From: an uncultured Ignavibacteria bacterium
GTDB taxonomy: Bacteria; Zixibacteria; MSB-5A5; WJJR01
Direction: 5' to 3'
Length of the DNA: 64,000 bases
Assembly: GCA_964593585.1 (NCBI GenBank)
Contig: CAZQIZ010000009.1
Span: forward strand, 306-64,305
Shown here: one piece after another, positions 3,001-62,790 of the stretch
How positions within the stretch are numbered: position 1 is the first letter of the stretch
Layout: the number at the start of each line of letters is the position of its first letter
Program-made: the position numbers and the translations under genes
The notes under the pieces: generated by a model
Told to the model about the DNA's origin: nothing
The model's database searches: none
The model's input: only the letters and a program-made list of their open reading frames with translations

Positions 3001-3335
3001 GCGCCGGCACCGCGACCTGCGGCGGCTACTTCACCTGCGGCCAGGCGGCCTGTGTGGCGACCTGCGTGTGCACCTGCCACGGCGACGCCAACTGCGACGG
3101 CGTCAAGGTGGATGTGCGCGACGTGGTCATTGCCATCAACATCGCCTTCCGCGGTACGCCTTCAACCTGTGATCCAGGTTGCCCGGCCGAACGCACCGAC
3201 GTCAACTGCGATGGCGTGAGCAACGTCGTCGACGTCGTCAAGATGGCCACCGTCGCCTTCCGCGGCGGCGACCCGGCCGTCGAGTTCTGCAACCCGTGCG
3301 ACACCGCGCCGCCAGGCGGCTCGACCTGCAATTAG
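36..3335 (+). CDS. Secreted 1099-aa Cys/Thr heptad-repeat protein (~130 imperfect x-G-x-x-T-C-x repeats) ending in the shared dockerin-like Cys-containing C-terminal module
   Basis: GTG start at 36 preceded by AGGAGGT (24-30). N-terminal signal peptide LLVVSTLLVAFALVSNAFSA. Residues ~95-1005 have Cys spaced every 6-7 residues (TCPGTAS-CAGTAS-CDGSTT-C...), with a matching 21-nt periodicity of ...acctgc... in the DNA. C-terminus CHGDANCDGVKVDVRDVVIAINIAFRG...TDVNCDGVSNVVDVVKMATVAFRGGDPAVEFCNPC has two D-x-N-x-D-G loops each followed by a helix, and is shared with five other proteins in the window. TAG stop followed by a terminator hairpin. Confidence 0.8.
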   Translation: MKCICTSGRTTKARCRGLLVVSTLLVAFALVSNAFSASDPEPSPLFQHSLKTSIEKFEEPNAAAKPAYPAKQARPHPEQAPNPGAAGAKMATLDGTYTCTGTPTCDGTATCTGEMTCNGAPDCLPPTMPGFPTCIGTQSCEGTTTCPGTASCAGTASCDGSTTCSGQQTCPGTTTCEGTLTCPGSTTCSDQPTCGDQPTCLHFPTCNMQPTCDGKPTCYNTASCHGSITCDAATPTCDQSPTCGGTATCTAGATCDGTATCGGVSCAAGGATCPGYVTCSGSNTCDPTGPTCDGSPSCDATGATCAGHPTCPGSTTCSTEPSCDGTASCAATVATCQGTASCPGWATCQGSVTCLGSTGATCDGNPTCKGYATCNNATTCVGYPSCPGTYTCEGYHTCAGAATCASNQTCPGTPTCDGTTTCGAGLPTCGTAATCSGQNTCNASLTCPGSNTCTGTQTCDAQASCPGSATCAGQQTCAGTVTCQTAATCNVTCNTTATCTGYNTCSWSNTCPGTPTCSDLQTCANQPTCPGGAATCQGTTTCHNITCSDVPTCPGYQTCEGSYTCVGSPTCPNQATCTGFQTCAGTPTCAPLHTCGGAATCAGTATCSPTLLTCAGQFTCAGSITCADVVTCPGTQTCLGSISCGHTITCAALSTCPGSPTCKGATTCKGQVTCKGAATCIGMPSCPQSVSCAVVTCSPSPTCGQHFSCWGQATCAGQNTCAGNPSCLGAVSCINAKTCAGVATCHGALTCPGTQTCNGTTCPGSATCPDSYSCSGFNTCSGSSTCPGSPTCCTPTSPGWPTCEGTTTCSGFMPTCGAWGPTCTNWQTCTGMPTCGKTPTCSATGVTCTSQPTCCWTGTCQGSPTCVNQPTCDFATCEGSVTCFGAYTCQGNVTCEGGATCHYSTTCEGYHTCPNSPTCDHQATCAGFTTCVGTTTCDGPTCNGTISCAGTPTCPGQATCAHTATCWDTHSCQGNVTCPGTSTCQAATCAGTATCGGYFTCGQAACVATCVCTCHGDANCDGVKVDVRDVVIAINIAFRGTPSTCDPGCPAERTDVNCDGVSNVVDVVKMATVAFRGGDPAVEFCNPCDTAPPGGSTCN

Positions 3336-5777: not shown

Positions 5778-5925
5778 CTATGAGAAACTTCTTTTCAATT
5801 GGGTCGCGGCGTCTTGTGCCGCGACCGGCTTGGAATCTTTGTTCCCCCGACCGCTTGCCAAATCCGCAAAATCCCGTACCTTGCGGAGTGATTTGCTCGT
5901 TTTACTTCACACAGACGGACTGCGA

Positions 5926-8631
5926 ATGACAATCAAACGTGTATTGCTGACCGCCGGCGCGCTGCTCGGCGTGGCCATCGTGTACCTGTCCCTGACCCAG
6001 CGCGAGCGCACTTCGCCCTCGCGCGCCTACTTCACCATGGTGCATGACTTTGTCGCCCAACGCGGCAAGGTTCCCAAGGCCAAGGCCCGTCCCAACGACT
6101 GGTTCTACCTCCAACGCGCCTGGCCGGGAGACGATGTCCCCGTCGAGGCGCGCATGAAGGCGAAGAACAAGGCGCTCGACCTCCAGCGCGCGTCCGCCGC
6201 CAAGGACGCCCAAACCGCGCCGGTCTGGTCCGATGCCGGACCGACCAACATCCCCGGACGGGTCGTCGACCTTGCCATCAATCCCTACAACTCCAGCATC
6301 GTCTTCGCCGCCTCGGCCGCCGGCGGTGTGTTCAAGTCAATCGATGGCGGCAACAATTGGACGCCGATCTTCGATGACCCCGGGCCGCAGCCGATGGGCG
6401 CGATCGCGATCCACCCGATCAACGACAACATCCTCTATGCCGGCACCGGCGAAGCCAACGCCGCCACCGACAACTACGAGGGCACCGGCATCTACAAGAC
6501 CATCGACGGCGGCGCATCCTGGACCCTGGTGGGCCTGCCCAACAGCTACAGCATCGGCCGCATCGTCATCGATCCCCTCCGCCCCGAAACCGTCTATGTC
6601 GCCGTCGCCGGACGCATGTTCGGCACCAATCCCGAACGCGGCCTCTACCGCTCGCAAAACGGCGGCGCCAGTTGGGAGCAATTGCTCTACATCAACGACA
6701 CCACCGGCTGCATCGATGTCGCCTTCCATGCCTCCACCGGCACCATTCTCGCCGGCATGTGGCAGCGCTGGCGCAATCCAATGCAACGGCAGGCGGGGGG
6801 ATGGTCGACCGCGATCTGGCGCTCGACCGACTTCGGCGCAAACTGGACGAAGCTCAATGGCGGTGTGACCCCCGGATTCGGATTGCCGGCGCCGTCGGCG
6901 ATCCTCGGACGCATCGGCCTGGCACTGACGCAAAACTCCGAGACCGTCTACGCGATGTTCGATGAGCATCCCGGCAACTTCGCCGGCATCTACCGCAGCG
7001 ATGACCTCGGCGGTTTCTGGTCGCGTGTCAACGATGCCGCCTTGAGCGGCTTTACCGGCGGATTCGGGTGGTATTTTGGCCAGATCCGCTGCCACCCCGG
7101 CGATCCCGAGGTGGTCTTCGCGCTCGGTGTGCCGCTCTACAAATCCGTCGACGGCGGCGCCTCCTGGAGTGAGATGGCCGGCAACATCCACGTCGATTTC
7201 CACGCGCTCGCTTTCAGCCCCACCAACAGCAACCAGATCTACCTCGGGGGCGACGGCGGCGTGGCCTACAGCGCCGACGGCGGCAACAACTTCACGCCGC
7301 GCGCCAACATGGGCAATTCGCAGTTCTATGCCATGACCATCGACAAACTCAATCCCGAACGTCTCTACGGCGGCACGCAGGACAACGGCACCCTGCGCAC
7401 GCTCACCGGCGCGCTCAACGATTGGGATCACATCCTCGGCGGAGATGGTTTCTACACCGTGGTCGATTTCACCAATTCCAACGTCATCTACGCCGAATTC
7501 CAGAACGGCTACCTGCTGAAATCCCCCGACCTCGGCGCGAATTTCTACTACGCCATGAACGGCATCGACTATAACAATGACCGACACAACTGGTCGACGC
7601 CCTTTGAGATGGCGCCCTACAACAACAATGTTCTCTACTACGGTTCCCATCGGCTGTATAAGACCAGCGATGGCGCCGCCAATTGGGCGCCGATCTCCGG
7701 CGATCTGACCGATGGCGATGATCCCGGCAACCTCGCCTTCGGCACCATCACCACCATTGGCGTGTCGCCCAACACGCCGGGCGTCGTCTACGTTGGCACT
7801 GACGACGCCAATATCTGGGTGACGCAGAATGACGGCGGCAACTGGACGAATATCACAGCCGGACTGCCCAACCGCTGGGTCACGCGCCTGACCGTCCACC
7901 CGACCAATCCCGCCATCGCCTATGTGACCCTCTCCGGTTACAAACTCGCCGACCATGAGGCGCACATTTACCGGACCAGCAACTATGGCGCGGCCTGGAC
8001 ACCGATCGCCGGCAACCTCTTCGATGCGCCGATCAACGATGTTGTCATCGATCCCGACTATCCCGATTCAGCGCTCTACATCGGCACCGACTATGGCGTC
8101 TACATGACTCATGACGGCGGCCAGAACTGGATCCCGCTCGATCAGGGGATGCCGCTTTTGACCCCCGTCCACGACATCGATTTCCATCAGGGCACGCGCA
8201 AGCTCGTCGCCGGCACCCATGGCCGCTCGATGTTCAAGACCACCGTTGCCTGCCCCGACGTAGTCGATGCCGACGGCGACAATGTCATGGATTTCTGCGA
8301 CAATTGCCCGGCCGCGAGCAATCCCGGTCAGGAGGATGCGGACGCCGATGGCATCGGCGACGCCTGCGAGGCCTGCGCCTGCGCCTGCCATGCCGATCCG
8401 CTCTGCGATGGCATCCGCAACAACGTGCAGGATGTCGTGCTCAGTGTCAGTGTCGCGTTCCGCGGCGCGGCCATCGCTCCCGATCCCAGCCCGACCTGTC
8501 CGCGCGAACCCACCGACGTGAACTGCGACGGCGTCACCGGGGTGGTCGATGTCGTCAAGATCGTCAATGTGGCGTTCCGTGGGGCCAACCCGCTCACGGA
8601 ATACTGCAACCCGTGCCCGCCGACTTCCTGA
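5926..8631 (+). CDS. Secreted BNR/Asp-box repeat beta-propeller protein (sortilin/Ycf48/GH74-like) with thrombospondin-type-3-like Ca-binding repeats and the shared dockerin-like C-terminal module
   Basis: At least 9 S-x-D-x-G-x-x-W Asp-boxes (SIDGGNNWT, TIDGGASWT, SQNGGASWE, STDFGANWT, SVDGGASWS, SADGGNNFT, TSDGAANWA, QNDGGNWT, TSNYGAAWT). DADGDNVMDFCDNCPAASNPGQEDADADGIGDACE repeats. C-terminus CACACHADPLCDG...TDVNCDGVTGVVDVVKIVNVAFRGANPLTEYCNPCP. Start set at ATG 5926 (MTIKRVLLTAGALLGVAIVYLSL signal/anchor); an upstream in-frame ATG at 5830 is possible. Confidence 0.75.
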   Translation: MTIKRVLLTAGALLGVAIVYLSLTQRERTSPSRAYFTMVHDFVAQRGKVPKAKARPNDWFYLQRAWPGDDVPVEARMKAKNKALDLQRASAAKDAQTAPVWSDAGPTNIPGRVVDLAINPYNSSIVFAASAAGGVFKSIDGGNNWTPIFDDPGPQPMGAIAIHPINDNILYAGTGEANAATDNYEGTGIYKTIDGGASWTLVGLPNSYSIGRIVIDPLRPETVYVAVAGRMFGTNPERGLYRSQNGGASWEQLLYINDTTGCIDVAFHASTGTILAGMWQRWRNPMQRQAGGWSTAIWRSTDFGANWTKLNGGVTPGFGLPAPSAILGRIGLALTQNSETVYAMFDEHPGNFAGIYRSDDLGGFWSRVNDAALSGFTGGFGWYFGQIRCHPGDPEVVFALGVPLYKSVDGGASWSEMAGNIHVDFHALAFSPTNSNQIYLGGDGGVAYSADGGNNFTPRANMGNSQFYAMTIDKLNPERLYGGTQDNGTLRTLTGALNDWDHILGGDGFYTVVDFTNSNVIYAEFQNGYLLKSPDLGANFYYAMNGIDYNNDRHNWSTPFEMAPYNNNVLYYGSHRLYKTSDGAANWAPISGDLTDGDDPGNLAFGTITTIGVSPNTPGVVYVGTDDANIWVTQNDGGNWTNITAGLPNRWVTRLTVHPTNPAIAYVTLSGYKLADHEAHIYRTSNYGAAWTPIAGNLFDAPINDVVIDPDYPDSALYIGTDYGVYMTHDGGQNWIPLDQGMPLLTPVHDIDFHQGTRKLVAGTHGRSMFKTTVACPDVVDADGDNVMDFCDNCPAASNPGQEDADADGIGDACEACACACHADPLCDGIRNNVQDVVLSVSVAFRGAAIAPDPSPTCPREPTDVNCDGVTGVVDVVKIVNVAFRGANPLTEYCNPCPPTS

Positions 8632-11347: not shown

Positions 11348-12115
11348 GGCGCACCTCGTGTCGGGATCCTGCGCTCGCGGCTCACGGCATTACTCTCATG
11401 CGGAGGGAGCTCGCCGCGTGGAGTCAAGGAATCAACCCGGAAATTCTCCACAAGGGGAAAGTTCGCGGCCAATTCAATCATGGGTGGCCCGGCGCCTGTG
11501 CGACGCGGGATTGATGGATGAGCAATGGCGAGGCAGCAAGACGGCCCGCAAAAAAGCGGGCCGCGACCGAATACCCCCGGCACGACCCGCAGACCATCCG
11601 TGGTCGATCCCGGAGAAGGGTGTTCCTGACGGTTATACGCTCGCATCGTCTTGCGCGTTACGATCGGACCACTGTGGTCATATTATGGCCGGATGATGAT
11701 CGCCATACCATCCCGAACGAAGTCCCAGATCTCCTCTCCCGGGGGCTCTTGATCACCTCGACACTGTCAGCAGTGATGCGCGACGAATCGGCGGAGGGCT
11801 CCATGGCCGCCGCCGTCGTCGTCGACGCCAGCGCGTAACCGGACACCAAGGCCAGCCGTCGCCATGCCATGCCCCTTTCGCACCCGAGCGCGCAATAGCG
11901 TCCGTACTAATGTGCATAGGATTCATCTGGCATGACCAAGCCGGTCTCACAATCAGGGGAGACCAGAATTTGTCATGGGCGGAGCGCGCGCACGGAGTAA
12001 GTCGAGATGAACCTGCGCCGGAATGGCGTAATTACTCTGTCGGACCCTTGTGCTCTCGTACCGTTTTTCCGACAGTTCACAACCGCAGACTGACATCGCT
12101 CCCGGGAGGTATTCC

Positions 12116-13699
12116 ATGCACAACGTGTGCCGATTCTCATCGCTGACCGCGGCGGTCGCTTTATCACTCCTGGCCATTGGCCCGGCCACGGCGGGCGCGC
12201 AAGGAATCACCAGCTTCACCGCATCCCCGTGCGTGCTCAGCGTGCAATGGCAGGCCGACGGCGATGCGGCGGGCGACTTCTTCGGCTTCTCTGTCGACGG
12301 TAACGCCGATTTCAACGGCGATGGCAAACCCGACATTCTGGTCGGCGCGATGCTGGGCGACATCGTGTATGGCTACTACATCAGTCCCATGGGTGTCTTC
12401 GAGCGCGGGGTCTGGTGGAACGGCGTCAGCGGATCGGATTTCGGCCGCTCGGTTCGCTTCCTCGGCGTGCCGGACAATGACCTGCACGGCACCGCTTCGG
12501 CTCTCATCGGCGCCCCGGGACACTCGGGCGCCGGGTTCGACAGTTGCGGCTTTGTCCACGAGCGCGGGCGCAGTAACCTCTTCGGCTGGATCGGGGAAGC
12601 GACGGGGGAGAAGCTGGGCTATTCGGTCGGCAACGTCGGCGATCTCGACGGTGATGGCTTCGATGAGATCATCGCCGGCGCTCCTGAGGCCGCGGGTGCG
12701 CTCGGTCCCCGCGCCGGCTACGTGCTCCTGCTGTCGCAGAATCCCGGCAGCGGCTACCTGATCCGTCGATATGATCGCGGCGTGCCGAATGAATTGTTCG
12801 GACGCGCCGTGGCCGGCGCCGGGGATGTCGACGCCGATGGTGTCAACGATGTCCTCATCGGCGCGCCGTACACATCCCGGATCGGTCCCGTGCTGCTGCC
12901 CGTCGGCGCCGCGTATGTCTATCGCACCGACGGCACCGTCATCTGGACGTTTTACGGCGAAACCGCGGGTGACTACTTCGGCAACAGCGTCGCCACCGCC
13001 GGCGACGTCAACGCCGACGGCCATCCCGACATCCTCGTCGGCGCCTGGCTCGCCGACGTCAACAGCATGCATGATGCCGGTGCCGCCTACGTCTATTCCG
13101 GCGCCGACGGTTCATTGCTCTACAGATTCGTGGGCGAGGGGCCGTCGCACTGCTTCGGCTACTCGGTGCGCGGTCTCGGCGACATCGATGCCGACGGCTA
13201 TGATGACTTCATCATCGGCGCCCACCGCGCCGATCTCAACGGCACCACCGACGGCGGCGCAGTCTATGTCTACTCCGGCCGATTGGGCAATTACCTCTGG
13301 ATCATTACCGGTCTGCACTCTGACGACATCTTCGGCGTCTCCGCCGCGGCCGCCGGCGACATGACCCTCGATGGCCACCCCGATTTCATCGTCGGCGCCT
13401 TCGGCACCGACCCCGACGGCCGCGTCGACGCCGGCTCCGCCTTTCTCTTCGGCTGCGCATGCGATTGCGCCTACAACGGCGACCCCGCCCATGACGGCAT
13501 CACCGATGTCCGCGATGTCGTGATCACCGTCGGCGTCGCCTTCCGCGGCACGGCCTCCGAGCAGGGCGTCAGTTGCCGCTACCAGGATCCGGACGTCAAC
13601 TGCTCCGGTGCCTGCGACGTCGTCGATGTCGTCAAGATGGTCAACGTCGCCTTCCGCGGCGGCAACCCGGCCACGGAATTCTGCGATCCCTGCCCGTAG
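12116..13699 (+). CDS. Secreted FG-GAP (integrin-alpha-type) beta-propeller repeat protein with the shared dockerin-like C-terminal module
   Basis: ATG 12116 after GGGAGGT. Signal peptide AAVALSLLAIGPATAGAQG. Repeated FGxSVxxAGDVNGDGxxDLxVGA motifs (GDFFGFSVDGNADFNGDGKPDILVGA, FGRAVAGAGDVDADGVNDVLIGAP, FGNSVATAGDVNADGHPDILVGA, FGYSVRGLGDIDADGYDDFIIGA, FGVSAAAAGDMTLDGHPDFIVGA). C-terminus CACDCAYNGDPAHDGITDVRDVVITVGVAFRG...DVNCSGACDVVDVVKMVNVAFRGGNPATEFCDPCP. Confidence 0.8.
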   Translation: MHNVCRFSSLTAAVALSLLAIGPATAGAQGITSFTASPCVLSVQWQADGDAAGDFFGFSVDGNADFNGDGKPDILVGAMLGDIVYGYYISPMGVFERGVWWNGVSGSDFGRSVRFLGVPDNDLHGTASALIGAPGHSGAGFDSCGFVHERGRSNLFGWIGEATGEKLGYSVGNVGDLDGDGFDEIIAGAPEAAGALGPRAGYVLLLSQNPGSGYLIRRYDRGVPNELFGRAVAGAGDVDADGVNDVLIGAPYTSRIGPVLLPVGAAYVYRTDGTVIWTFYGETAGDYFGNSVATAGDVNADGHPDILVGAWLADVNSMHDAGAAYVYSGADGSLLYRFVGEGPSHCFGYSVRGLGDIDADGYDDFIIGAHRADLNGTTDGGAVYVYSGRLGNYLWIITGLHSDDIFGVSAAAAGDMTLDGHPDFIVGAFGTDPDGRVDAGSAFLFGCACDCAYNGDPAHDGITDVRDVVITVGVAFRGTASEQGVSCRYQDPDVNCSGACDVVDVVKMVNVAFRGGNPATEFCDPCP

Positions 13700-13992: not shown

Positions 13993-16365
13993 ATGAGACA
14001 CATCCTGCAGTGGGCCTTTGCCCTCACCGTGCTTGGGTCCACCTTGACGCTGGCGGCCGTCCCCACCACGCTCAATGACTTCTTACTCCCGGGCTCACAG
14101 CCGACCCAATCCGGCCAACTCGAAACACCGGACAAATGCGACAACTGCCACGGCGGCTATGATCCCGCCGTCGAGATGGCGTTCAATTGGCGCGGCAGCA
14201 TGATGGCCCAGGCCGCCCGCGACCCTCTCTACTTCGCCTGCCTGGCCATCGCCAACCAGGATGCGCCGGAAAGCGGCGATCTGTGCATCCGCTGCCACTC
14301 ACCGGCCGGCTGGCTGGAGGGCCGCTCGATCCCCACCGACGGTTCGGCGCTCAACCTCAATGACCGCCAGGGCGTCCAGTGCGACTTCTGCCACAAGTTC
14401 GTCAAGCCGACTCCGATTGGAACCAACCCGTATCCCGCTGACGCGTCTTACACTGCTGGCACCTACCCGCGTGATCAGATCTATCTGGGGAACATCGACC
14501 CAATCCCCACGCACTCGGCCAACGGCATGTATGTGGTGGACAGCGACAATTCCAAGCGCGGACCCTACACCGACCCAAACGCGAAACACCAGTTCTTCTA
14601 TTCGCCGTTTCATCGCGCTGCCGCCCTCTGTGGCACCTGCCATGATGTGTCCAACCCCGTCTACATGAAGGTGGCCGATCGCGACTACGTGCCTAACACC
14701 TTCGACCAGCCATCCCCCAGCTTCGATCCCTACACCATGTTTCCGATCGAGCGCACCTTCAGCGAATGGCTGATGAGTGATTACAACACCCCGGCCGGTG
14801 TCTACGCGCCGCAGTTCGGCGGCAACAAGCCCCACGTATCCACCTGCCAGGACTGCCACATGAAGGATGTCACCGGCGTCGGCTGCAACAAGGCCGGCAC
14901 CCCGACCCGTACCGACCTGCCGTTCCATGACATGACCGGCGGCAACACCTTCATGCCCGACATCGTCGCGGCGGTCTTTCCGGCCGAGGTCAATACAGCG
15001 GCGCTGGATGCCGGCGAGGCGCGCGCGCGCGGCATGCTGCAGAAAGCCGCTTCCATGGCGCTCTCTGCCACTTCTGGCGCTGGAATCCATGACCTGCGGG
15101 TCCGCATCACCAACGAAACCGGCCACAAGTTGCCGTCGGGCTATCCCGAAGGGCGACGCATCTGGATCAACGTGCGCGCCTTCGACATCACCGGGCTGCT
15201 GGTCTATGAATCCGGCGCCTACGATCCGGCCAGCGCGGTACTGTCTCATGACGCGCACGCCAAGATCTACGAGATCCATCCCGGCATTTCGTACAGCGCC
15301 AGTCCCATTCTCGGTCTGCCGCCGGGCAAGTCCTTCCACTTCGTCGTCAACGACACAATCTGGTCCGACAACCGCATCCCGCCGCGCGGTTTCACCAACG
15401 CCGACTTCGAGATGATCCAGTCGCCGGTGGTTGGATATGCCTATCCCGACGGTCAGTACTGGGACGACACGCACTACCCGGTTCCCGGGATTGCGCGCAC
15501 AATTATCGCCACGCTGTATTACCAGACCACATCGAAAGAGTACGTTGAGTTTCTCCGCGACGAGAATCGCTCGAACGACTGGGGCGACTCGCTCTACAAC
15601 CTATGGGCCGCGCACGGGAAATCCGCGCCGGTTTTGATGGTCTCCGACACTCTGCTGGTTGTGCCCACTGCCGGCGACACCGATGGCGACGGCATCCCCG
15701 ATGTGACCGATAACTGCCCGACGGTGCCCAACCCCGCACAACTCAACGCCGATGGCGACGCCTATGGCGCGGCGTGCGACTGCGACGACGCCAGCGCGCA
15801 GGTCTATCCCGGCGCGTCCGAGCTGTGCAACGGGATCGATGACAATTGCGACGGCCTTATCGACAGCAACGCGGTCAATGCGCCGACTTGGTATGCCGAC
15901 GCCGACAACGACACCTGCGGCAACCTGGCGATCACGAAGCTTCAATGCACTCAGCCGACCGGCTATGTCGCCAACAGCTCCGACTGCAATGATGGCAACG
16001 CGCAGGTCCATCCCGGCGCCCCCGAACTGTGCAACGGCATCGATGACAACTGCAACGATGTGACCGACGAAAGCTGCGAGTGCGTGTGCGCCTGCCACGC
16101 CGATCCCGTCTGCGACACGATCATCGTCAATGTTCTTGATGTCGTCAGCGTGGTCAACGAGGCCTTCCGCGGGGCAGTGGCGATCACCGACCCGACGCCA
16201 TGCGCCTACAGCCCGTCCGATGTCGATTGCAGCGGCCTGATTAGCGTGCTCGATGTCGTGCGTATTGTAAACGTCGCCTTCCGTGGGAACAACCCCGCCA
16301 CGGAGTTCTGTTCACCGTGCCCGCCGGCGACCGAGACCCGCGCCGGGTCGGGCTTAACGGACTAA
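13993..16365 (+). CDS. Secreted multiheme c-type cytochrome (5 CxxCH) fused to Cys-rich metal-binding-type repeats and the shared dockerin-like C-terminal module
   Basis: Signal peptide MRHILQWAFALTVLGSTLTLAA. Heme motifs CDNCHG, CIRCHS, CDFCHK, CGTCHD, CQDCHM. Later DTDGDGIPDVTDNCPTVPNPAQLNADGD and two C-D-C-D-D-x-x-A-x-V-x-P-G-A-x-E-L-C-N-G-I-D-D-N-C repeats (MopE-like putative metal-binding motif). C-terminus CECVCACHADPVCD...SDVDCSGLISVLDVVRIVNVAFRGNNPATEFCSPCP. Confidence 0.8.
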   Translation: MRHILQWAFALTVLGSTLTLAAVPTTLNDFLLPGSQPTQSGQLETPDKCDNCHGGYDPAVEMAFNWRGSMMAQAARDPLYFACLAIANQDAPESGDLCIRCHSPAGWLEGRSIPTDGSALNLNDRQGVQCDFCHKFVKPTPIGTNPYPADASYTAGTYPRDQIYLGNIDPIPTHSANGMYVVDSDNSKRGPYTDPNAKHQFFYSPFHRAAALCGTCHDVSNPVYMKVADRDYVPNTFDQPSPSFDPYTMFPIERTFSEWLMSDYNTPAGVYAPQFGGNKPHVSTCQDCHMKDVTGVGCNKAGTPTRTDLPFHDMTGGNTFMPDIVAAVFPAEVNTAALDAGEARARGMLQKAASMALSATSGAGIHDLRVRITNETGHKLPSGYPEGRRIWINVRAFDITGLLVYESGAYDPASAVLSHDAHAKIYEIHPGISYSASPILGLPPGKSFHFVVNDTIWSDNRIPPRGFTNADFEMIQSPVVGYAYPDGQYWDDTHYPVPGIARTIIATLYYQTTSKEYVEFLRDENRSNDWGDSLYNLWAAHGKSAPVLMVSDTLLVVPTAGDTDGDGIPDVTDNCPTVPNPAQLNADGDAYGAACDCDDASAQVYPGASELCNGIDDNCDGLIDSNAVNAPTWYADADNDTCGNLAITKLQCTQPTGYVANSSDCNDGNAQVHPGAPELCNGIDDNCNDVTDESCECVCACHADPVCDTIIVNVLDVVSVVNEAFRGAVAITDPTPCAYSPSDVDCSGLISVLDVVRIVNVAFRGNNPATEFCSPCPPATETRAGSGLTD

Positions 16366-16384: not shown

Positions 16385-17920
16385 ATGCGACACCATTTCC
16401 GATTGATTGTTCCCGTTCTGGGGCTGTTCCTAGGATTTGCAGCGCCGACAGCCTTTAGCGATACCCTGCCGATCGAATTATTCCGCGGCGCCGATGGTCA
16501 GATCGATGTCGCGGCGGTCCGCGACTCAAGTCTGAATCATGCGATCGACCTGACGGCGCTTTCCATCAGTGATCCACCGGCTGCCTCGAGGCTGGCGCCC
16601 TGCGCCTGGAGCGCCACGCCGACCGGCGTCAGCAATTGGGTCTACGCGCTGGCCACCCACAACAACGATCTCTATGCCGGAGGATTATTCACCACGGCCG
16701 GTGGCGCGACCGTCAATCGCATCGCGCGCTGGGACGGCGTCGCCTGGAATCCACTGGGCGGCGGCATGAACAGCGGCGTGCTCGCGTTGGCTTCCTTCGG
16801 CGACCTGCTGATCGCCGGCGGATCGTTCGCCGTTGTCGATGGCGACTCGATTCCGCGCATCGCGGCATGGGATGGCAGCGACTGGATTCCGCTGGGCTCC
16901 GGCATGAATGACCGTGTGTATGCGCTGACCGTCTACAACGGCCGGCTGATTGTCGGGGGGGACTTTACGCTCGCCGGCGGTGTCGCCGCCAGCCATGTCG
17001 CCGCGTGGGATGGGGTCGCGTGGAGTCCGCTCGCGGCCGGAATCAACGGCCGCGTCTACGCCTTTACCGCCTACGAGGGCCGTCTTATTGCCACCGGCGA
17101 GTTCAGCGAGGCCGGCGGTGCGCCCGCATCGAGCATCGCCGCCTGGGATGGCGTCTCATGGTCCGCCCTCGGCGATGGCATCCATCGCGTGGGCTATGCG
17201 CTGGCCGTCTACGGGTCCGAGCTCATTGTGGGCGGACAATTCACCGCCTCCGGCAATCAGCCCGGCCCCAATCTCGCGTCCTGGGATGGCACGACCTGGT
17301 CCACACTCGGCGGCGGTGTTGCCACCGCGGTCAACGCCCTCCTGGTCGACTCCGGTTCACTCTATGTGGGCGGCTGGTTTACCAGCGCCGGCGGCGCCCC
17401 GGCCCTGCGGGTTGCGCGCTGGGATGGCGCCGCCTGGAATGCCCTCGGCGGCGGGATGGGAAGCCCGGTCAATGCGCTTTCGCTCTATCAGGGCAATCTC
17501 ATTGCCGGCGGGATGTTCACGACCGCCGATGGTCTTTCCGTTGGATACATCGCGGGATGGAGCATGGATCGCGACGGCGACGGCGTCTGCGCCGGCGACA
17601 ACTGTCCCGACGTCTTCAACCCCGATCAGGCCGACAGCGACGGCAACGGCGTCGGCGATGCTTGCGAATCGTGTGCCTGCGACTGCCATGCCAATCCCGT
17701 CTGCGATCTGCCCGAGCCCGATGCGCGCTCGGTGATCGCGATCATGAACGTGGCCTTCCGCGCCTACCCCGACATCATCGATCCGTCGCCCACCTGTCCA
17801 TTTACCACGACCGATGTGGATTGCGATGGCGTCACCACGATTCTCGATGTTCAGCGCATGATCAACGTCGTCTTCCGCGCCGGCGATCCGGCGACGGAGT
17901 TCTGCCTTCCCTGCGACTGA
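16385..17920 (+). CDS. Secreted seven-bladed beta-propeller repeat protein (46-47-aa A-x-W-D-G-x-x-W-x-x-L-G-x-G repeats) with TSP3-like linker and the shared dockerin-like C-terminal module
   Basis: Signal peptide. Seven tandem repeats (RIARWDGVAWNPLGGGMN..., RIAAWDGSDWIPLGSGMN..., HVAAWDGVAWSPLAAGIN..., and so on). Then DRDGDGVCAGDNCPDVFNPDQADSDGNGVGDACE and CACDCHANPVCD...TDVDCDGVTTILDVQRMINVVFRAGDPATEFCLPCD. Confidence 0.75.
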   Translation: MRHHFRLIVPVLGLFLGFAAPTAFSDTLPIELFRGADGQIDVAAVRDSSLNHAIDLTALSISDPPAASRLAPCAWSATPTGVSNWVYALATHNNDLYAGGLFTTAGGATVNRIARWDGVAWNPLGGGMNSGVLALASFGDLLIAGGSFAVVDGDSIPRIAAWDGSDWIPLGSGMNDRVYALTVYNGRLIVGGDFTLAGGVAASHVAAWDGVAWSPLAAGINGRVYAFTAYEGRLIATGEFSEAGGAPASSIAAWDGVSWSALGDGIHRVGYALAVYGSELIVGGQFTASGNQPGPNLASWDGTTWSTLGGGVATAVNALLVDSGSLYVGGWFTSAGGAPALRVARWDGAAWNALGGGMGSPVNALSLYQGNLIAGGMFTTADGLSVGYIAGWSMDRDGDGVCAGDNCPDVFNPDQADSDGNGVGDACESCACDCHANPVCDLPEPDARSVIAIMNVAFRAYPDIIDPSPTCPFTTTDVDCDGVTTILDVQRMINVVFRAGDPATEFCLPCD

Positions 17921-19241: not shown

Positions 19242-20915
19242 ATGCGCACAATCCTCGCCCTTCTGGCCGCGACGCTGGTCGCCGCGTCCGTCCGCGCCGA
19301 GGTCCCGACCGGAATCACCATCCAGGGCCGACTCACCGACGCCGCCGGCGTGCCGCTTCCCGCCGGCAACAAGGACTTCACGTTCAAAATCTTCGATGCC
19401 GCCGTCGGGGGCACCGAAGTCTGGCCCGGCGGGGCAGGGGAGGATCAGGTCATCGCCAGCGACGCCGACGGACTCTGGTCGGCCACCCTCGGCGCAATTC
19501 TTCCGGTTACCGGCGAGGCCTTCCAGGATTCGGCGCGCTGGCTGCAGATCACCGTGGAGGGCACCACGCTGCCGCGCGTGCGCCTCCAATCGACTCCCTA
19601 TGCCATCCGTCTCGAATCCATCGACCGCGCCTACGGCGGCACGATCCAAAGCCCGGTGGCCATCGGCCCCGGTCACACCAACAGCGGTCCCATGGGCTTC
19701 GTCGCCGGCGCAGACAATGCCGTGACCGCCGAGGCCGGCTCCATCTCCGGCGGCCGCTACAACGAAGCCACCGGAGTCGGCGCCACCGTCGGCGGCGGTG
19801 TCTTCAATCGCGCGCGCGGCGACTATTCTGTCATCGCCGGCGGCGGTGCCGATGGCATCGACTCGAATCTTGCCGCAGGCAATTGGTCGACCATTTCCGG
19901 CGGATTCCGGAACACAACTCGGGCCCCGTATGCCACCGTCGGCGGCGGCATCGGACACACCGTGGATAATCTGGCCTCCTATGGTGTCATCGCCGGTGGC
20001 GGCTTCAGCACGGCCGAGGGATTCTTTTCCGCCATCGGCGGCGGATGGGCCAATCGGGCCGCTGGACCGTACTCCACCGTGACCGGCGGCTCCTTCAACC
20101 GCGCCTACGGCTACGGCGCGGTCGTCCATGGCGGCTCGGGATCTCCCGCCGATTCGAACGTGGCCCGCGGCAATTTCTCCATGGTCCTCGGCGGAACGCG
20201 AAACCTCGCCAATGGCAACTGGTCGCTGGCCGCCGGCCATCGCGCCCGCGCACAACACACTGCCTCCTTCGTCTGGGCTGACAGCACCAGCGCCGATTTC
20301 TTCTCCACCGGCCCCAGTCAGTTCCTCATCCGCGCCCGCGGCGGCGTCGGCATCGGCACCAACCAGCCGCAGACCGCCACCGGCGGACAGGTCCTGCACA
20401 TCCTCAACCCCGTCGGCCCCTCCGTGCTGCGTCTCGATGACGGAGAATTCAATGGCATCCAGTGGGAGATCCAGTCCACCGTCTACGGGGGCATCGGCAC
20501 GCTCAACTTCAGTAACATTACCGCCTTTACCAATCCGTTCCAGTTCTATGCCACCGGCGACTTCCATGCCTCCGGCAACATCTGCGCCGCCAACCACGCC
20601 TGCCCCTCCGATGCGCGTCTCAAGGAGGACGTCCGGCCCATCGCCGGCGCCCTCGAACGCGTCCGGCAGTTGCGCGGTATCGAATACCGCTGGACGGAAG
20701 CGGCGCAACGCGACCGCCATCTGCCCGCCGACCGGCAGATCGGCCTCCTCGCCCAAGATGTCCGCGCCATCGCCCCGCAGGCCGTGATCGAGCAATCCGA
20801 TGGCACGCTCGCTGTTGACTACGCGCGACTCGTGCCCCTCTTGATCGAAGCAGTGAAAACTCGACAGCAGCAAATCGAATCACTGAATACCCGGTTGGAG
20901 CAACTCATTCCGTAG
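19242..20915 (+). CDS. Fibre-like surface protein paralog A: signal peptide, conserved N-terminal domain, Gly/Asn/Ala 14-residue repeats, C-terminal Peptidase-S74-like intramolecular chaperone domain
   Basis: ATG with AAGGAGA RBS. N-terminus EVPTGITIQGRLTDAAGVPLPAGNKDFTFKIFDAAVGG...WLQITVEGTTLPRVRLQSTPYA is homologous to the N-termini of the six downstream genes. C-terminus CPSDARLKEDVRPI...QIGLLAQDVRAIAPQAV...LAVDYARLVPLLIEAVK matches the SDxRLKxNI / IAQEV / LIEAIKEL pattern of phage tail-spike and endosialidase chaperone domains. Confidence 0.8.
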   Translation: MRTILALLAATLVAASVRAEVPTGITIQGRLTDAAGVPLPAGNKDFTFKIFDAAVGGTEVWPGGAGEDQVIASDADGLWSATLGAILPVTGEAFQDSARWLQITVEGTTLPRVRLQSTPYAIRLESIDRAYGGTIQSPVAIGPGHTNSGPMGFVAGADNAVTAEAGSISGGRYNEATGVGATVGGGVFNRARGDYSVIAGGGADGIDSNLAAGNWSTISGGFRNTTRAPYATVGGGIGHTVDNLASYGVIAGGGFSTAEGFFSAIGGGWANRAAGPYSTVTGGSFNRAYGYGAVVHGGSGSPADSNVARGNFSMVLGGTRNLANGNWSLAAGHRARAQHTASFVWADSTSADFFSTGPSQFLIRARGGVGIGTNQPQTATGGQVLHILNPVGPSVLRLDDGEFNGIQWEIQSTVYGGIGTLNFSNITAFTNPFQFYATGDFHASGNICAANHACPSDARLKEDVRPIAGALERVRQLRGIEYRWTEAAQRDRHLPADRQIGLLAQDVRAIAPQAVIEQSDGTLAVDYARLVPLLIEAVKTRQQQIESLNTRLEQLIP

Positions 20916-20926
20916 GAGGCCTTGTC

Positions 20927-23494
20927 ATGCGCTGCCTGACCCTTCTTGCTGTCATCGTCCTGGCGTGGAGCGCCACCGTTCAGGCCGCCGTTCCCGCCAG
21001 CATCACCGTGCAGGGCAAACTGACCGATCTGTCCGGCAATCCGCTGCCCGCCGGATCGAAGAACTTCGTTTTCAAGATTTACGATGCCCCCACGCTGGGC
21101 AATGAGATCTGGCCCAACGGAGCAGGGGAGAACCAGTCGCTGACCAGCGACGCCGCCGGTCTCTGGATCGGACTGGTCGGCGCGGTGGTACCGCTGACCG
21201 ACGCAGTCTTCAGCGACAGTGTTCGCTGGCTGGAGATTAACGTCGACGGCACGACGCTGCCGCGCGTGCGACTGGCGACCGGCCCCTATGCGCACCGTGT
21301 CGCGACCGTGGATGGTGCATCCGGCGGCTCGATCACCACCAAGGTCTCCATCGGTCCCGGGCATCTCAACAGCGGTGCGCACGCCTTCGTCACCGGGATC
21401 GGAAACACGACTACCGGCGATACATCGACGATTGCAGGCGGCGCGCGAAATGTGGTCGGCGGACCCGGCGCAGCGATTCTCGGCGGCGTGGATCAGACGG
21501 TGTCTGGTGGTTTCTCGGCAATCGCCGGCGGACAGAACAACACCGCCGCCGGTGTCGCGAATTTCATTGGAGGCGGTTCGGGAAATCATACGGAGAACAA
21601 CAACTCCGTTATCGCCGGCGGACGAGACAATGCCGCCACCGGTTTCGGCGCCACGGTCAGCGGCGGCATCAACGACACCGCCCTTGGTCCGGCAACGACC
21701 GTGGCCGGAGGCGCCTTCAACTCCGCCCGGGCCGACTACGGCGCCGTCTCCGGCGGAGTGCAGAACGCAGCCGTGGGGCAATGGGCGTACGTGGGCGGCG
21801 GATGGAAGGATTCCGCCCTCGCACGCGGTGCCACGGTCTCCGGCGGCGAGACCAATGTTGCCTCAGGAAACTGGTCGACAATCGGCGGTGGCGCCACCAA
21901 CGCCGCGCCCGGACAGGGCGCCACGGTGGCCGGCGGTGGCGGCAATCTCGCCATCGGCGCCAACTCGGTCGTCGGCGGCGGCGAACTGAATCGCGCCGGA
22001 GCCGTCGCATCCACAATCGCCGGTGGTTACGACAGTGACGCGGACAGCAGCTACACCGCCATCGGCGGCGGATACCAAAACCGCGCCCGCGCCGGATACG
22101 GCGCCATCTCAGGCGGGCGCGCCAATCTGATTGACTACAAAGGACTCTTCGGCACTATCGGCGGCGGCCTGTCGAATCGCGCCGGCGGTCCCGGTGCGAC
22201 AGTCGCTGGCGGCCGCAACTGCTTTGCCGATACCAACGGCACCGTCGGCGGCGGATATGCCGACAGCGCCACCGGGAACGGCGCCTTCGTCGGCGGAGGG
22301 TTTTACAACACCGCCGCCACCTTTCAATCCGCCATCGTTGGGGGGTACTATAATCGTGCCTTCGGCTACTCCTCGTTCATCGGTGGCGGCGGCTTCAACA
22401 AGGCGTATGGCTGGTACTCCGTCATCGGCGGCGGTGGCGGCACAAGCGTGGTCGACTCGAACGCGGCCATCGGCGACTACTCGTTTATCGGCGGCGGCTC
22501 CACGAACACCGCCAGCGGCGATTACACCACCCTTTCCGGTGGGCAACGCAATCGGGCCGCGGCGGTCGGCGGCACCATCGGCGGCGGTTACGACAACTAC
22601 ACCCAAGGGGTCATGGCAACCGTCGGTGGGGGCCAAGGCGACAGCGCGCTGGGCAACTATTCCACAATCCCCGGCGGGCAGCTGAATCGCGCCGCAGGAG
22701 ACAATTCCTTTGCCGCAGGATTCCTCGCCCGAGCCAATCACGACGGAACGTTTGTCTGGGCCGACGGCATCGGCGCCTCCTTCACCTCGACGGGCGCCAA
22801 TCAGTTCCTCGTCCGCGCTGGGGGCGGCGTCGGCATCAATACCTCGCAACCGGAAACTCCGCTGCATGTGCTGAGGGGGTCGACTCCCGTTTCGGGAACC
22901 GCCTGGCCATACGCCATCGCCAACTTCGAACATGCCGACAACGGGTACATCTCCATCACCACCCCGGATGTGAATGAGCGCGGCATCCTCTTCGCCGACG
23001 CCTCCTCCAACGTCGACGGTGCGATCATCTACAACTCAAGCATCGCCGGCGTGCCCGATGGATTCCAATTCCGCACATCGGGAAACCAGGCCCGGGTCAA
23101 CTTCTACTCCAACGGCGATGTCCTCGCTGTCGGCAATATTACCGCCTGGGGCAATGTCTGCGCCTTCAACGGCGGCGCATGCGTCTCTGACGGACGTCTG
23201 AAAACTGATGTCGCGCCGCTGACCAATGCCCTGGATGCTGTCGAACGGCTCCGTGGCGTCAGATACCAATGGAAACACGATGCCATACCCGACCATCCGA
23301 TGGCTCGGGGCGAGCAGATCGGTCTCATCGCGCAGGAAGTTAGAGAGATCATCCCTCAGGCTGTCACCGAGACGCGCGAGGGCTACCTCGCCGTTGACTA
23401 CGCGCGTCTGGTCCCGTTGCTCATCGAAGCGCTCAAGGAGCAACAACGCCAGATCGACGAACTGAAATCCGAACGGCGCGCCTCGACACCCTGA
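20927..23494 (+). CDS. Fibre-like surface protein paralog B (855 aa), with S74-like C-terminal chaperone domain
   Basis: AGGAGG RBS and ATG 11 nt after the paralog A stop. Signal peptide MRCLTLLAVIVLAWSATVQA. Conserved N-domain AVPASITVQGKLTDLSGNPLPAGSKNFVFKIYDAPTLGNEIWPNGAGENQSLTSDAAGLW...LPRVRLATGPYAHRV. About 45 repeats of the x-x-x-T/S-V-x-G-G-x-x-N-x-A-x-G type (YadA-head/Hep_Hag-like). C-terminus SDGRLKTDVAPL...IGLIAQEVREIIPQAV...LIEALKEQQRQIDELK. Confidence 0.85.
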   Translation: MRCLTLLAVIVLAWSATVQAAVPASITVQGKLTDLSGNPLPAGSKNFVFKIYDAPTLGNEIWPNGAGENQSLTSDAAGLWIGLVGAVVPLTDAVFSDSVRWLEINVDGTTLPRVRLATGPYAHRVATVDGASGGSITTKVSIGPGHLNSGAHAFVTGIGNTTTGDTSTIAGGARNVVGGPGAAILGGVDQTVSGGFSAIAGGQNNTAAGVANFIGGGSGNHTENNNSVIAGGRDNAATGFGATVSGGINDTALGPATTVAGGAFNSARADYGAVSGGVQNAAVGQWAYVGGGWKDSALARGATVSGGETNVASGNWSTIGGGATNAAPGQGATVAGGGGNLAIGANSVVGGGELNRAGAVASTIAGGYDSDADSSYTAIGGGYQNRARAGYGAISGGRANLIDYKGLFGTIGGGLSNRAGGPGATVAGGRNCFADTNGTVGGGYADSATGNGAFVGGGFYNTAATFQSAIVGGYYNRAFGYSSFIGGGGFNKAYGWYSVIGGGGGTSVVDSNAAIGDYSFIGGGSTNTASGDYTTLSGGQRNRAAAVGGTIGGGYDNYTQGVMATVGGGQGDSALGNYSTIPGGQLNRAAGDNSFAAGFLARANHDGTFVWADGIGASFTSTGANQFLVRAGGGVGINTSQPETPLHVLRGSTPVSGTAWPYAIANFEHADNGYISITTPDVNERGILFADASSNVDGAIIYNSSIAGVPDGFQFRTSGNQARVNFYSNGDVLAVGNITAWGNVCAFNGGACVSDGRLKTDVAPLTNALDAVERLRGVRYQWKHDAIPDHPMARGEQIGLIAQEVREIIPQAVTETREGYLAVDYARLVPLLIEALKEQQRQIDELKSERRASTP

Positions 23495-23583
23495 CGTCAG
23501 CGCGCCGACAATACCGAACGCGGTGTTTGTCCCAGTTGGACACCGATTCACCTCTCATCGCTGGAGCTTTGGTGGAGGACCTC

Positions 23584-25623: not shown

Positions 25624-25756
25624 TCACGGCCATCTCGCCTGAACCAACCGTGACCTTCTGCCAGCTCTTGCCCGCGCTCGGAAGCGAAGTGTGCCGTGCG
25701 CCCGCCGACTTTCCCCGGCGAATGAGGTTGAATTTCCTCCCTCTTTTGGCCGAGCT

Positions 25757-25770
25757 GGACTATATTAATC
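25757..25770 (+). promoter_or_regulatory. Conserved GGACTATATTA motif (-10-like TATATT) 66 nt upstream of the paralog D start
   Basis: The same CAGACTATATTAC motif lies 70 nt upstream of the paralog E start (28711-28725). AT-rich hexamer in an otherwise GC-rich intergenic region. Confidence 0.25.
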
Positions 25771-25835
25771 CCGATTTCCGTCTCGGACGGACGCAGTCTG
25801 CCCGTTTACCGCTGTCTGCCAATTTGGAGGACCTT

Positions 25836-61534: not shown

Positions 61535-61600
61535 TTTACCTCTCCCTCAGGGAGAGGTCGTCCCTGCCGTAGGCAGGGGCGGGTGAGGGGACCGGGCGCA
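61535..61600. repeat. Family-2 palindromic repeat (cctctccctcagggagagg + tcgtccctgccgtaggcaggggcgggtgagggg)
   Basis: Near-identical to 51796-51850 in the first hairpin. The second hairpin is a variant (ccctgcc/ggcaggg). Confidence 0.5.
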
Positions 61601-61686
61601 TGACCAGATTCCAGTCATCCCCGTGCATTCAATACGACAGCCAAGCGAGCGATCCCCACAACACCATCATCCCTCCAAGGACTCAC

Positions 61687-62790
61687 ATGGACCTCGATAA
61701 ACTCCTCTCCGATCCACCCGCCGACCTGCTGGCGCGCGCCTCCGTCGAACCCTCCGATGGCCGCGTCGACCTGCGGCGCGCCCGTCAACTGTCCATCACC
61801 CGCGACACTTACCTCGAAGCCGAGTCGCGCGGCCTGACCCTCTCCGAACTGCTCGAATCCCCCGACTTCGACCCCAGCCCCGTCGACAGCCCGTTGGATG
61901 CCTTCGAACGTCAACTGGCCGCGCGCGGGCTGCGCGTCGGCGGATCCAATCCGGTCACCGTCGAGCTGTTTTACCGCGGCGCGCCGGCGCTTTTGCCCGA
62001 ATTCATGATGCGCGAAATCCGCGCCGGCATGGCGATGCGTCCCGAACTGGCCGGCCTGGTCGGCGCCACCTCGCGCATCACCGCCAACCGCTACACCCCG
62101 TTCGATGTCGATGCCGCCATCACCGATCCGAAATGGTCGCTGCGTCCGACCGGCGATGGCGCCAATGTCCCGGCGGTGGTGGTCACCGAACGGGTCAACT
62201 CGATCGACATCCCGGACTATGGCCTGGCGCTGAAGGCCTCCTACAAGGCGCTGCGCCATCGCACCATGCCGCAATTCAAGGTGCTGCTCTGGTACATCGG
62301 CTACCGCATGCAGGTCGACAAACTCGGATTGCTGGTCGATGTGCTGCTCAACGGCGACGGCAACGACAACGCCGCCGATGTGATCAACACCGCCGTCTCC
62401 GGCGCCTTCACCTACGCCGACCTGGTCGCCTTCTGGTCGGAACTGCATCCGTTCGAGATGAACACGCTGGTCTGCGGCAAGGCGAAGCTGGCCGCCATCC
62501 TCACCATGGATGAATTCAAGGACGCCAACGCCGGGTTCCGTTTTCAGAGCACCGGCGAACTGGTCAGCCCGATCGGCGCCTCGCTGGTGCGCTCGGATGA
62601 AGTCCCCGCCGATCTGGTCATCGGCATGGATCGACGCTTCGCCGCCGAGGAGGTCATCACCCAGCCGCTCACCGTCGAATACGACAAGATCATCGAGCAG
62701 CGCTTCGAGGAGGCCGTGATCTCCGAATCCGTCGCCTACGCCAAGGTCATTCCCGACGCTGCCAAAGCCCTCGACACCGTCTGGCCGTAG
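61687..62790 (+). CDS. Putative HK97-fold phage major capsid protein (~367 aa)
   Basis: AAGGA RBS then ATG 61687. Size, helix-rich N-terminal ~100 aa (delta-domain-like) and position after protease and decoration genes fit a major capsid protein. No diagnostic motif could be verified by eye. Confidence 0.4.
   Translation: MDLDKLLSDPPADLLARASVEPSDGRVDLRRARQLSITRDTYLEAESRGLTLSELLESPDFDPSPVDSPLDAFERQLAARGLRVGGSNPVTVELFYRGAPALLPEFMMREIRAGMAMRPELAGLVGATSRITANRYTPFDVDAAITDPKWSLRPTGDGANVPAVVVTERVNSIDIPDYGLALKASYKALRHRTMPQFKVLLWYIGYRMQVDKLGLLVDVLLNGDGNDNAADVINTAVSGAFTYADLVAFWSELHPFEMNTLVCGKAKLAAILTMDEFKDANAGFRFQSTGELVSPIGASLVRSDEVPADLVIGMDRRFAAEEVITQPLTVEYDKIIEQRFEEAVISESVAYAKVIPDAAKALDTVWP

Follow-up and report, generated by a model that had tools for sequence, protein, structure and literature searches.

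A pentaheme cytochrome with an extracellular-type tail from a Zixibacteria genome, homologous to LPC and MccSep and lacking the catalytic residues of the latter

Introduction

What does a five-heme c-type cytochrome do when it stands among β-propeller proteins that end in the same C-terminal module as itself? This question is raised by the open reading frame (ORF) 13993-16365 on the forward strand of a 64,000-nucleotide stretch of contig CAZQIZ010000009.1 (assembly GCA_964593585.1, positions 306 to 64,305), from an uncultured bacterium deposited under Ignavibacteria and placed by GTDB in the Zixibacteria. We refer to this whole stretch as the window, and all coordinates given below for the window are on its forward strand. 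The first-pass annotation described the product as a five-heme cytochrome followed by a large middle domain, thrombospondin type-3 (TSP3)-like calcium sites, two MopE-type putative metal-binding repeats and the shared module, and suggested extracellular electron transfer (EET) or metal redox chemistry at the cell surface. Our analysis leads elsewhere. We consider it reasonably probable (about 60%) that the protein is a surface-displayed redox enzyme or relay of the superfamily that unites the pentaheme cytochrome LPC with the polysulfide reductase MccSep, and that it belongs to a separate, unnamed clade of the Fibrobacterota-Chlorobiota-Bacteroidota (FCB) and Planctomycetota-Verrucomicrobiota-Chlamydiota (PVC) groups with a remodelled heme-2 site.

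Results

A five-heme c-type cytochrome

The ORF is complete, starts with ATG and encodes 790 residues, which comprise a signal peptide, a pentaheme core, a TSP3 region, a pair of MopE-type repeats and a dockerin-like module. A protein identical to it (P0001) is found on one JGI metagenome contig of 94,217 bp and in two other assemblies. Its N-terminus looks like a Sec-type signal peptide (aa 1-22, 13993..14058, MRHILQWAFALTVLGSTLTLAA, with cleavage predicted before VP), with a charged n-region, a hydrophobic core (mean Kyte-Doolittle value 1.57 over aa 4-21), small residues at positions -1 and -3 and no lipobox cysteine. Homologs have similar N-termini, and their alignments begin at about residue 20.

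Downstream of the predicted signal peptide, an α-helical five-heme cap (aa 23-345, 14059..15027) carries the motifs CDNCH (heme 1, aa 49-53, 14137..14151), CIRCH (heme 2, aa 98-102, 14284..14298), CDFCH (heme 3, aa 130-134, 14380..14394), CGTCH (heme 4, aa 213-217, 14629..14643) and CQDCH (heme 5, aa 285-289, 14845..14859). Shuffled versions of the same protein contain 0.04 CxxCH motifs on average and two at most. All ten motif cysteines are invariant both in 66 close homologs and in a divergent set of 49 homologs with 38-67% identity, to which all counts out of 49 given below refer, and so are the motif histidines, save for H102 (48/49 in the divergent set). Exactly five CxxCH motifs are also found in 211 of 266 family proteins; those with fewer resemble gene fragments, and in nine a sixth heme is contributed by an extra N-terminal monoheme domain. 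The product is thus a genuine five-heme c-type cytochrome, as initially proposed, and its motifs lie neither in an unconserved region nor, judging from an AlphaFold2 model with a pLDDT of 87.6, in an unfolded one. Separate from these is P0181 (1152 aa), the sole family member with 14 CxxCH motifs, which consists of the core and a long additional multiheme region and might be an EET-type derivative.

The core shares its fold with LPC

The AlphaFold2 model, built from 66 homologs (pTM 0.87), has a helical N-terminal half and a β-rich C-terminal half. The latter (aa 346-556, 15028..15660) is made of an Ig-like β-sandwich stem and a family-specific C-terminal block, and corresponds to the middle domain of the first-pass annotation; such a region is indeed present, yet it is not a separate domain: it shares one fold with the heme domain and supplies the conserved histidines H378 and H449. 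The sole significant structural neighbour of the model is 5ZE8 (Foldseek, E 1.3e-14), the pentaheme cytochrome c552 of Thermochromatium tepidum (LPC), with which the five-heme domain and the Ig-like domain can be superimposed as a whole. A profile of the divergent family recovers 5ZE8 by sequence as well (E 5.9e-10), together with faint similarity to NrfA and OcwA and a borderline match to the MccSep structure (PDB 9WT8). Pfam finds no match in aa 1-555, and a search of the whole-protein sequence against the PDB matched only the TSP3 and MopE-type tail, without detecting the core; as that search reached the tail only, the family profile and the predicted structure were needed to establish the homology of the core.

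LPC itself, a soluble cytochrome from a purple sulfur bacterium, is not known to carry a surface module and has no known function. It is about 170 residues shorter than the window protein, has His where the window family has M71 and Ala where it has Y384, and in the aligned stretches shows no counterpart of the conserved DNRIPPRGF block described below.

Homology to MccSep without its catalytic residues

MccSep (ExtKL, GSU2937-2936; PDB 9WT8), the multiheme cytochrome c selenoprotein polysulfide reductase of Geobacter sulfurreducens, is a periplasmic tetramer in which a five-heme helical cap is combined with an Ig-like stem, His122 and Cys239 serve as ligands of heme 2, the active site is completed by the selenocysteine Sec325 of the Ig-like domain, and electrons are proposed to travel from heme 1 over hemes 3 and 4 to heme 2, heme 5 being a side branch from heme 4 (bioRxiv 10.1101/2025.11.18.688581). 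We aligned the window family, profile to profile, with a profile of the Geobacter sequence and seven homologs taken from the supplement of that preprint. HHalign matched the two at 99.6% probability in local mode (E 6.9e-25, 252 columns) and at 99.9% in global mode, from which the residue equivalences given here are taken. The heme motifs at positions 49/98/130/213/285 pair one to one, in the same order, with those at 58/118/170/221/259 of MccSep, so that heme 1 aligns with C58-H62 and heme 2 with the catalytic heme 2 (C118-H122). Three conserved histidines also have counterparts, namely H312 (H276), H378 (H319, in the shared loop N-x-x-G-H-x-x-P-x-G) and H449 (H388, in a shared GLPPGK..H motif; 15337..15339, 45/49), and the helical heme cap and Ig-like stem are common to both proteins. 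What the window protein has in addition are inserts at about aa 141-194, 229-252, 290-345 and 455-545, and its surface-anchoring modules. We conclude that aa 23-556 form one catalytic-type unit, homologous to LPC and to the Geobacter MccSep.

The residues on which the chemistry of MccSep depends are, in contrast, not retained. The position of Sec325 is occupied by Y384 (NETGHKLPSG-Y-P as opposed to NHAGHSIPDG-U-P), and among 221 relatives it holds Tyr in 203, Phe in 8, His in 7, other residues in 3 and Cys in none. C239, the cysteine ligand of heme 2, falls in a gapped stretch of the alignment opposite aa 242-252, where the family has no conserved Cys, His or Met, and the only core cysteines outside the heme motifs, C83 (10/49) and C298 (25/49), are both poorly conserved. 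At M71 (14203..14205, Met in 47/49), finally, both MccSep (H74) and LPC have His, which points to a His-to-Met switch of the distal ligand on one heme. The NCBIfam model for ExtKL, NF040886, reaches 22.9 bits against a cutoff of 250 and covers aa 276-407 only. On these grounds we rejected an assignment to MccSep: judged by its residues, the window protein is a clear MccSep homolog that fails both residue-level features defining MccSep and its chemistry.

These observations bear directly on the idea that the protein is an MccSep-like polysulfide or elemental-sulfur reductase relocated to the surface, where insoluble sulfur would be directly accessible. The clear homology, which includes the Ig-like loop bearing the catalytic residue, and the weak ExtKL match would be in keeping with it, as would a rhodanese gene found 5 kb upstream in one Zixibacteria genome and the remark of the MccSep authors that the route by which extracellularly generated polysulfide reaches the periplasmic enzyme is unresolved (bioRxiv 10.1101/2025.11.18.688581). 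The same authors, however, define the MccSep family through its Sec/Cys site, and both critical residues are missing here, with Cys never found at the position of Sec325 and no conserved equivalent of C239, while the ExtKL score stays far below its cutoff. We regard sulfur reduction as very improbable; with both catalytic residues gone, the reaction is probably a different redox reaction from that of MccSep.

Clade-specific conserved residues

The position of Y384 lies in the most conserved segment of the family, the loop N374-ETGHKLPSG-Y384-PEGRRI-W391 (15112..15165), which is exactly the loop that forms the active site in MccSep. R388 and W391 are invariant, R389 is found in 46/49, E386 and G387 are conserved, and Y384 itself is present in 40/49, the remainder having F, H, M or D. 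As Tyr, His and Met at position 384 can all ligate heme, a His/Tyr ligation of heme 2 is one option; the other would be an open heme lined by Tyr/Arg(/His), a state with a loose likeness to NrfA-type active sites. A second block, D459-N-R-I-P-P-R-G-F467 (15367..15393), is specific to the family, has no convincing alignment with MccSep and is invariant at D459, R461, I462, P463 and G466. Among the candidate distal ligands, H199 is conserved in 48/49 and both H312 and H378 in 49/49. Further conserved residues are R76, D77, E258, W259 and S262, and the invariant polar ones include D77, E258, R388, D459 and R461.

A large family in the FCB and PVC phyla with tails that suggest surface display

With aa 1-556 as the query, more than 7,700 clusters (90% identity) were retrieved, and the best 120 matches align at 63-73% identity across essentially the full core, with variable C-termini. 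A HMMER scan run exhaustively over 50%-identity representatives yielded 2,893 matches at E<=1e-3, of which 566 reach E<=1e-30. The family is found in at least 594 species of the FCB and PVC phyla, three of them cultured Bacteroidota, has no Pfam or NCBIfam model, and shows 45-72% identity across 80 loci from different phyla.

The modules that follow the core in these relatives speak for a position at the cell surface and not in the periplasm. By hand count, the best 119 matches include about 52 with a sorting domain of the type IX secretion system (T9SS; PF18962) and about 15 with a dockerin (PF00404), usually with PKD, FN3, cadherin-like or HYR spacers between core and tail. Across 65 ORFs from species genomes, members from the FCB group carry T9SS-type tails and those from Planctomycetota a dockerin/EF-hand-like tail of about 60 residues, and yet another tail type is found in Verrucomicrobiota and Kiritimatiellota. 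T9SS tails score above the Pfam threshold in Mangrovibacterium marinum, Gilvirhabdus luticola and Aestuariivivens sediminis; the three cultured marine/mangrove Bacteroidota carriers are aerobes or facultative anaerobes. Dockerin_1 is confirmed by Pfam in a member from Zixibacteria and is sub-threshold in one from Planctomycetales. We found no literature that pairs T9SS or type IX secretion with multiheme cytochromes.

Two further observations concern the distribution of such genes. Some Phycisphaerae and Eisenbacteria have two copies of the pentaheme core in one locus (L072, 9869-11815 and 17009-18850; L076, 8549-11893 and 11964-14483), and as the copies in L076 are adjacent, the family grows by local duplication. 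Genomes of the Zixibacteria type also encode other redox enzymes with T9SS tails (L005, 15981-17525; L006, 10937-12964), among them a di-heme peroxidase of the CCP/MauG kind and a multicopper oxidase, which suggests that these phyla hold a broader, little-studied stock of surface-displayed oxidoreductases.

The tail of the window protein

In the window protein, the core is followed by an Asp-rich, Ca-binding-type TSP3 region (aa 557-599, 15661..15789) that is recognised by Pfam as one TSP_3 repeat (PF02412, aa 561-583, 28.9 bits against a cutoff of 25), in agreement with the first reading, and by PDB matches to COMP and thrombospondin. It runs into the first of two Cys-rich repeats of the MopE type (PF11617; 82 bits against a cutoff of 27), located at aa 595-625 (15775..15867, found by Pfam and by the PDB search) and aa 664-693 (15982..16071, found by Pfam). 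While both repeats are where they had been proposed, the metal chemistry read into them is not borne out by MopE*, where the Cu(I) site is formed by His132, His203 and kynurenine-130, the motif-type region belongs to the N-terminal 46 residues that are invisible in the crystal, and Cu(II) electron paramagnetic resonance data give no support for coordination by cysteine (PMC3423442). Since the copper site of MopE* lies elsewhere and its motif region is unseen in the crystal, the repeats are no evidence of metal or copper chemistry. With 19 cysteines and 13% Asp, the composition of the tail would rather fit a disulfide-rich, Ca-binding extracellular stalk.

The C-terminal module (aa 695-777, 16075..16323) is, as noted before, shared: the same Cys-rich segment of about 80 residues (CxCxC…VNVAFRG…PATEFCxPC) ends five secreted-type ORFs within 18 kb, three of which are β-propellers. 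The other four are ORF 36-3335 (1099 aa, module at 3063..3299), for which Pfam gives no match even at E up to 1, ORF 5830-8631 (a Sortilin-Vps10/BNR propeller, 8374..8616), ORF 12050-13699 (an FG-GAP propeller, 13454..13693) and ORF 16385-17920 (a DUF5122-type propeller, 17672..17914). When compared by HHalign with 15 canonical dockerin tails of the family, the five modules matched at 97.9% (E 4e-13, 40% identity, 62 columns). They have the duplicated layout of a type I dockerin, with a Ca-binding-type loop (D-x-[DN]-x-[DS]-G) and a helix, as in the canonical dockerin of P0114, to which the cytochrome's copy can be aligned even though its first loop is degenerate (ADPVCDTIIVNVLD). Dockerin_1 of Pfam (gathering threshold 22.9 bits) does not match the cytochrome's copy and scores 14.4 and 14.0 bits in two of the paralogous ones. 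From alignment and layout, we read the shared tail of the window as a divergent dockerin. No cohesin was detected by Pfam in any long ORF of the window. Together with the T9SS sorting domains, dockerins and spacers of the relatives, this tail agrees with the extracellular position suggested earlier, and the cytochrome is probably located at the surface.

Genomic neighbourhood and extracellular electron transfer

The window contains no cytochrome maturation (ccm) genes, no porin-cytochrome genes, no periplasmic multiheme partner and no genes for respiration or any other redox process. Relatives with complete or long genomes carry the cytochrome gene in isolation, and neither blastp clustering in 80 species-genome loci nor a pooled Pfam scan of 92 immediate neighbours revealed a conserved neighbour.

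The commonest neighbour, a CRP/FNR-type regulator, accounts for 4 of the 92 immediate neighbours. It is encoded directly upstream of the cytochrome gene in L009 (9069-9839) and L006 (7158-7859), in both cases with cNMP_binding and HTH_Crp_2 domains, and neighbours in L013 (8870-9739), L014 (269-988) and L019 (1452-2153) fall into the same group by 37-48% identity to that of L009. This hints at a redox-, O2- or NO-responsive control in that sub-clade; the window has no such regulator. We also considered an enrichment of oxidative-stress genes around the cytochrome gene (superoxide dismutase, rubrerythrin, cytochrome c peroxidase and multicopper oxidase neighbours), which was dropped because the cases are anecdotal and not general across the 80 loci.

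A terminal surface cytochrome for EET, akin to OmcA/MtrC or the outer-surface cytochromes of Geobacter, would hand respiratory electrons to minerals of Fe(III) or Mn(IV), or would accept electrons from Fe(II). The window offers neither porin nor periplasmic multiheme partner nor ccm genes, and the 80 related loci no conserved neighbour of any kind. The combination of multiple hemes with surface-anchoring modules does speak for such a role, as do the abundance of the family in sediment phyla such as Zixibacteria, Latescibacteria and Ignavibacteria and the 14 motifs of P0181. Hemes 1-3 of relatives, moreover, show a weak and mostly sub-threshold similarity to the Pfam families of MtrC/MtrF domain II/IV, cytochrome c7 and c554. 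The window protein, however, has no match to the pentaheme domain PF22113 at E up to 1, and most of its relatives stay under the 30-bit cutoff.

Like the decahemes MtrC and OmcA, the window protein would be a multiheme c-type cytochrome of the outer face, but it has five hemes rather than ten, lacks MtrAB-type partner genes, and retrieves no MtrC-family structure in fold searches, where LPC is the best match. MtrC and OmcA are lipoproteins exported by the type II secretion system, unlike the window family, whose secretion apparently relies on a T9SS tail or a dockerin. Its occurrence, with T9SS tails, in the three cultured marine/mangrove Bacteroidota also counts against EET, and so does the degree of conservation, as 45-72% identity between phyla and many invariant polar residues seem atypical of outer-surface EET cytochromes. 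Finally, the closest characterised relative is an enzyme, a periplasmic polysulfide reductase, and not a conduit. The proposed role in EET or metal redox chemistry finds no backing in the gene content of the window or of the 80 related loci, and we judge it unlikely.

Fusions to extracellular oxidoreductases

A different hint comes from the domains fused to the core. Among 41 long representatives, four carry a GSDH domain (pyrroloquinoline quinone (PQQ)-dependent soluble glucose/sorbosone dehydrogenase), one of them also with a malectin domain, one carries a lysyl-oxidase domain and one a CBM96 domain, and in one sub-clade a monoheme cytochrome c and an Ig domain have been added N-terminally. 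Every catalytic domain seen in fusion with the core is thus an extracellular oxidoreductase, which fits a heme chain that exchanges electrons with enzymes of this kind.

Such fusions could also be expected of a pure electron carrier or "capacitor" that lacks a catalytic site and is docked beside surface enzymes, relaying electrons, for example, from PQQ sugar dehydrogenases to lytic polysaccharide monooxygenases (LPMOs) or other extracellular oxidoreductases. The GSDH, malectin, CBM96 and monoheme cytochrome c fusions are consistent with a carrier, and so are the presence of five conserved distal-ligand candidates for five hemes and the dockerin-type co-localisation with other secreted proteins. 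There are also precedents: a secreted c-type cytochrome domain of Cellvibrio japonicus is reported to reduce LPMOs (PMC8981238), and a PQQ pyranose dehydrogenase from a fungus, which carries a cytochrome b domain, to drive them (PMC5960967). Both systems resemble the window family in that a secreted heme domain is held in place by binding or spacer modules, and the pairing of PQQ dehydrogenase and cytochrome in the fungal one is echoed by the GSDH fusions of some family members. The window protein itself has no linked LPMO or PQQ dehydrogenase. The Cellvibrio and fungal cytochrome domains are single-heme and of unrelated folds.

For a carrier, it is difficult to see the family's strongest conservation fall on exactly the loop that shapes the active site in MccSep, with the polar DNRIPPRGF block conserved in addition. 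The fusions are rare, and the dockerin-tagged neighbours in the window include FG-GAP, DUF5122 and Sortilin-type propellers and no GSDH, LPMO or other oxidoreductase. We find a pure carrier rather unlikely.

Other features of the window

Elsewhere in the window, six tandem paralogous ORFs between 19242 and 33587 (19242-20915, 20927-23494, 23527-25623, 25650-28586, 28795-31302 and 31314-33587) end in a Peptidase_S74 domain (PF13884, the endosialidase intramolecular chaperone) and resemble tail fibres or tailspikes, an array that is unusual for a bacterial chromosome. The ORF that follows it (33641-35731) has a weak β-roll match only. Further downstream, 61600-62790 weakly matches Phage_capsid_4 (E 2.8e-06; 28.3 bits, with the cutoff at 27), and this match and the S74 array could jointly indicate a prophage or phage-derived region.

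Discussion

The reading we prefer is that of a surface-displayed redox enzyme or relay of the LPC/MccSep superfamily. The cytochrome would be exported by Sec and displayed at the cell surface, with five hemes held in the helical cap, loops of the Ig-like stem reaching back to them, and the DNRIPPRGF motif placed in the family-specific block. By homology, electrons would follow hemes 1, 3 and 4, beyond which the path forks to hemes 2 and 5. The heme-2 pocket, the site of the reaction in MccSep, would be remodelled, having lost the Cys ligand and the Sec/Cys nucleophile and gained a near-invariant Tyr384 flanked by R388 and R389, so that the site would be either His/Tyr-ligated or open and lined by Tyr and Arg. 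On one heme, Met71 would stand in the place of a distal His. The heme chain may exchange electrons with extracellular partners or small molecules, and a role as electron acceptor from or donor to extracellular oxidoreductases is suggested by the fusions of the core to PQQ sugar dehydrogenase, to lysyl oxidase and to a monoheme cytochrome c. The TSP3 region, the two Cys-rich repeats and the Cys-rich dockerin would act as spacer and anchor, the dockerin docking the cytochrome to a receptor in common with its four neighbouring, mostly β-propeller proteins.

Several points weigh against this picture. M71, H199, H312, H378 and H449 would suffice to make all five hemes six-coordinate, which fits a pure carrier equally well. 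The placement of Y384, R388/R389 and H449 near heme 2, and the coordination of that heme, are projected from MccSep at about 24% identity, and C239 sits in a gapped part of that alignment. The closest structure, LPC, is of a protein of no known function. The surface location is deduced from domains only, the dockerin assignment stays below Pfam's own threshold, and in the window we identified neither an electron donor nor a cohesin nor a secretion system. Fusions to catalytic domains are a small minority of the family, and none of the dockerin-tagged neighbours in the window is an oxidoreductase.

A bolder form of the enzyme reading would make the conserved core of 530 residues a new class of extracellular heme enzyme, a pentaheme oxidoreductase common among FCB and PVC bacteria and held at the cell surface by the anchor particular to each lineage. 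Its heme 2, Tyr-ligated or Tyr/Arg-lined in place of the Cys/Sec equipment, would couple extracellular oxidations, such as the PQQ-dependent oxidation of sugars, to the reduction of an extracellular oxidant; O2, H2O2 or reactive oxygen species would be candidates, as would a metal or a partner enzyme, for instance an LPMO. We put this forward tentatively and hold it to be doubtful; if true, it would represent a bacterial counterpart of the fungal dehydrogenase-cytochrome systems, with a chemistry so far undescribed for multiheme cytochromes.

Multiheme cytochromes at the cell surface are usually read as a sign of metal respiration, and the window protein shows that such a reading can mislead. 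Its family is among the largest uncharacterised multiheme families in the databases, and the one relative that has been characterised is an enzyme, both catalytic residues of which are here systematically replaced. The question can be addressed experimentally, since a T9SS-tailed ortholog exists in three cultured Bacteroidota. If the core is indeed an extracellular enzyme or relay, this would affect how the potential for "iron-cycling" or "EET" is scored in metagenomes of Zixibacteria, Latescibacteria, Eisenbacteria, Ignavibacteria, Planctomycetota and Bacteroidota, and could reveal new heme chemistry.

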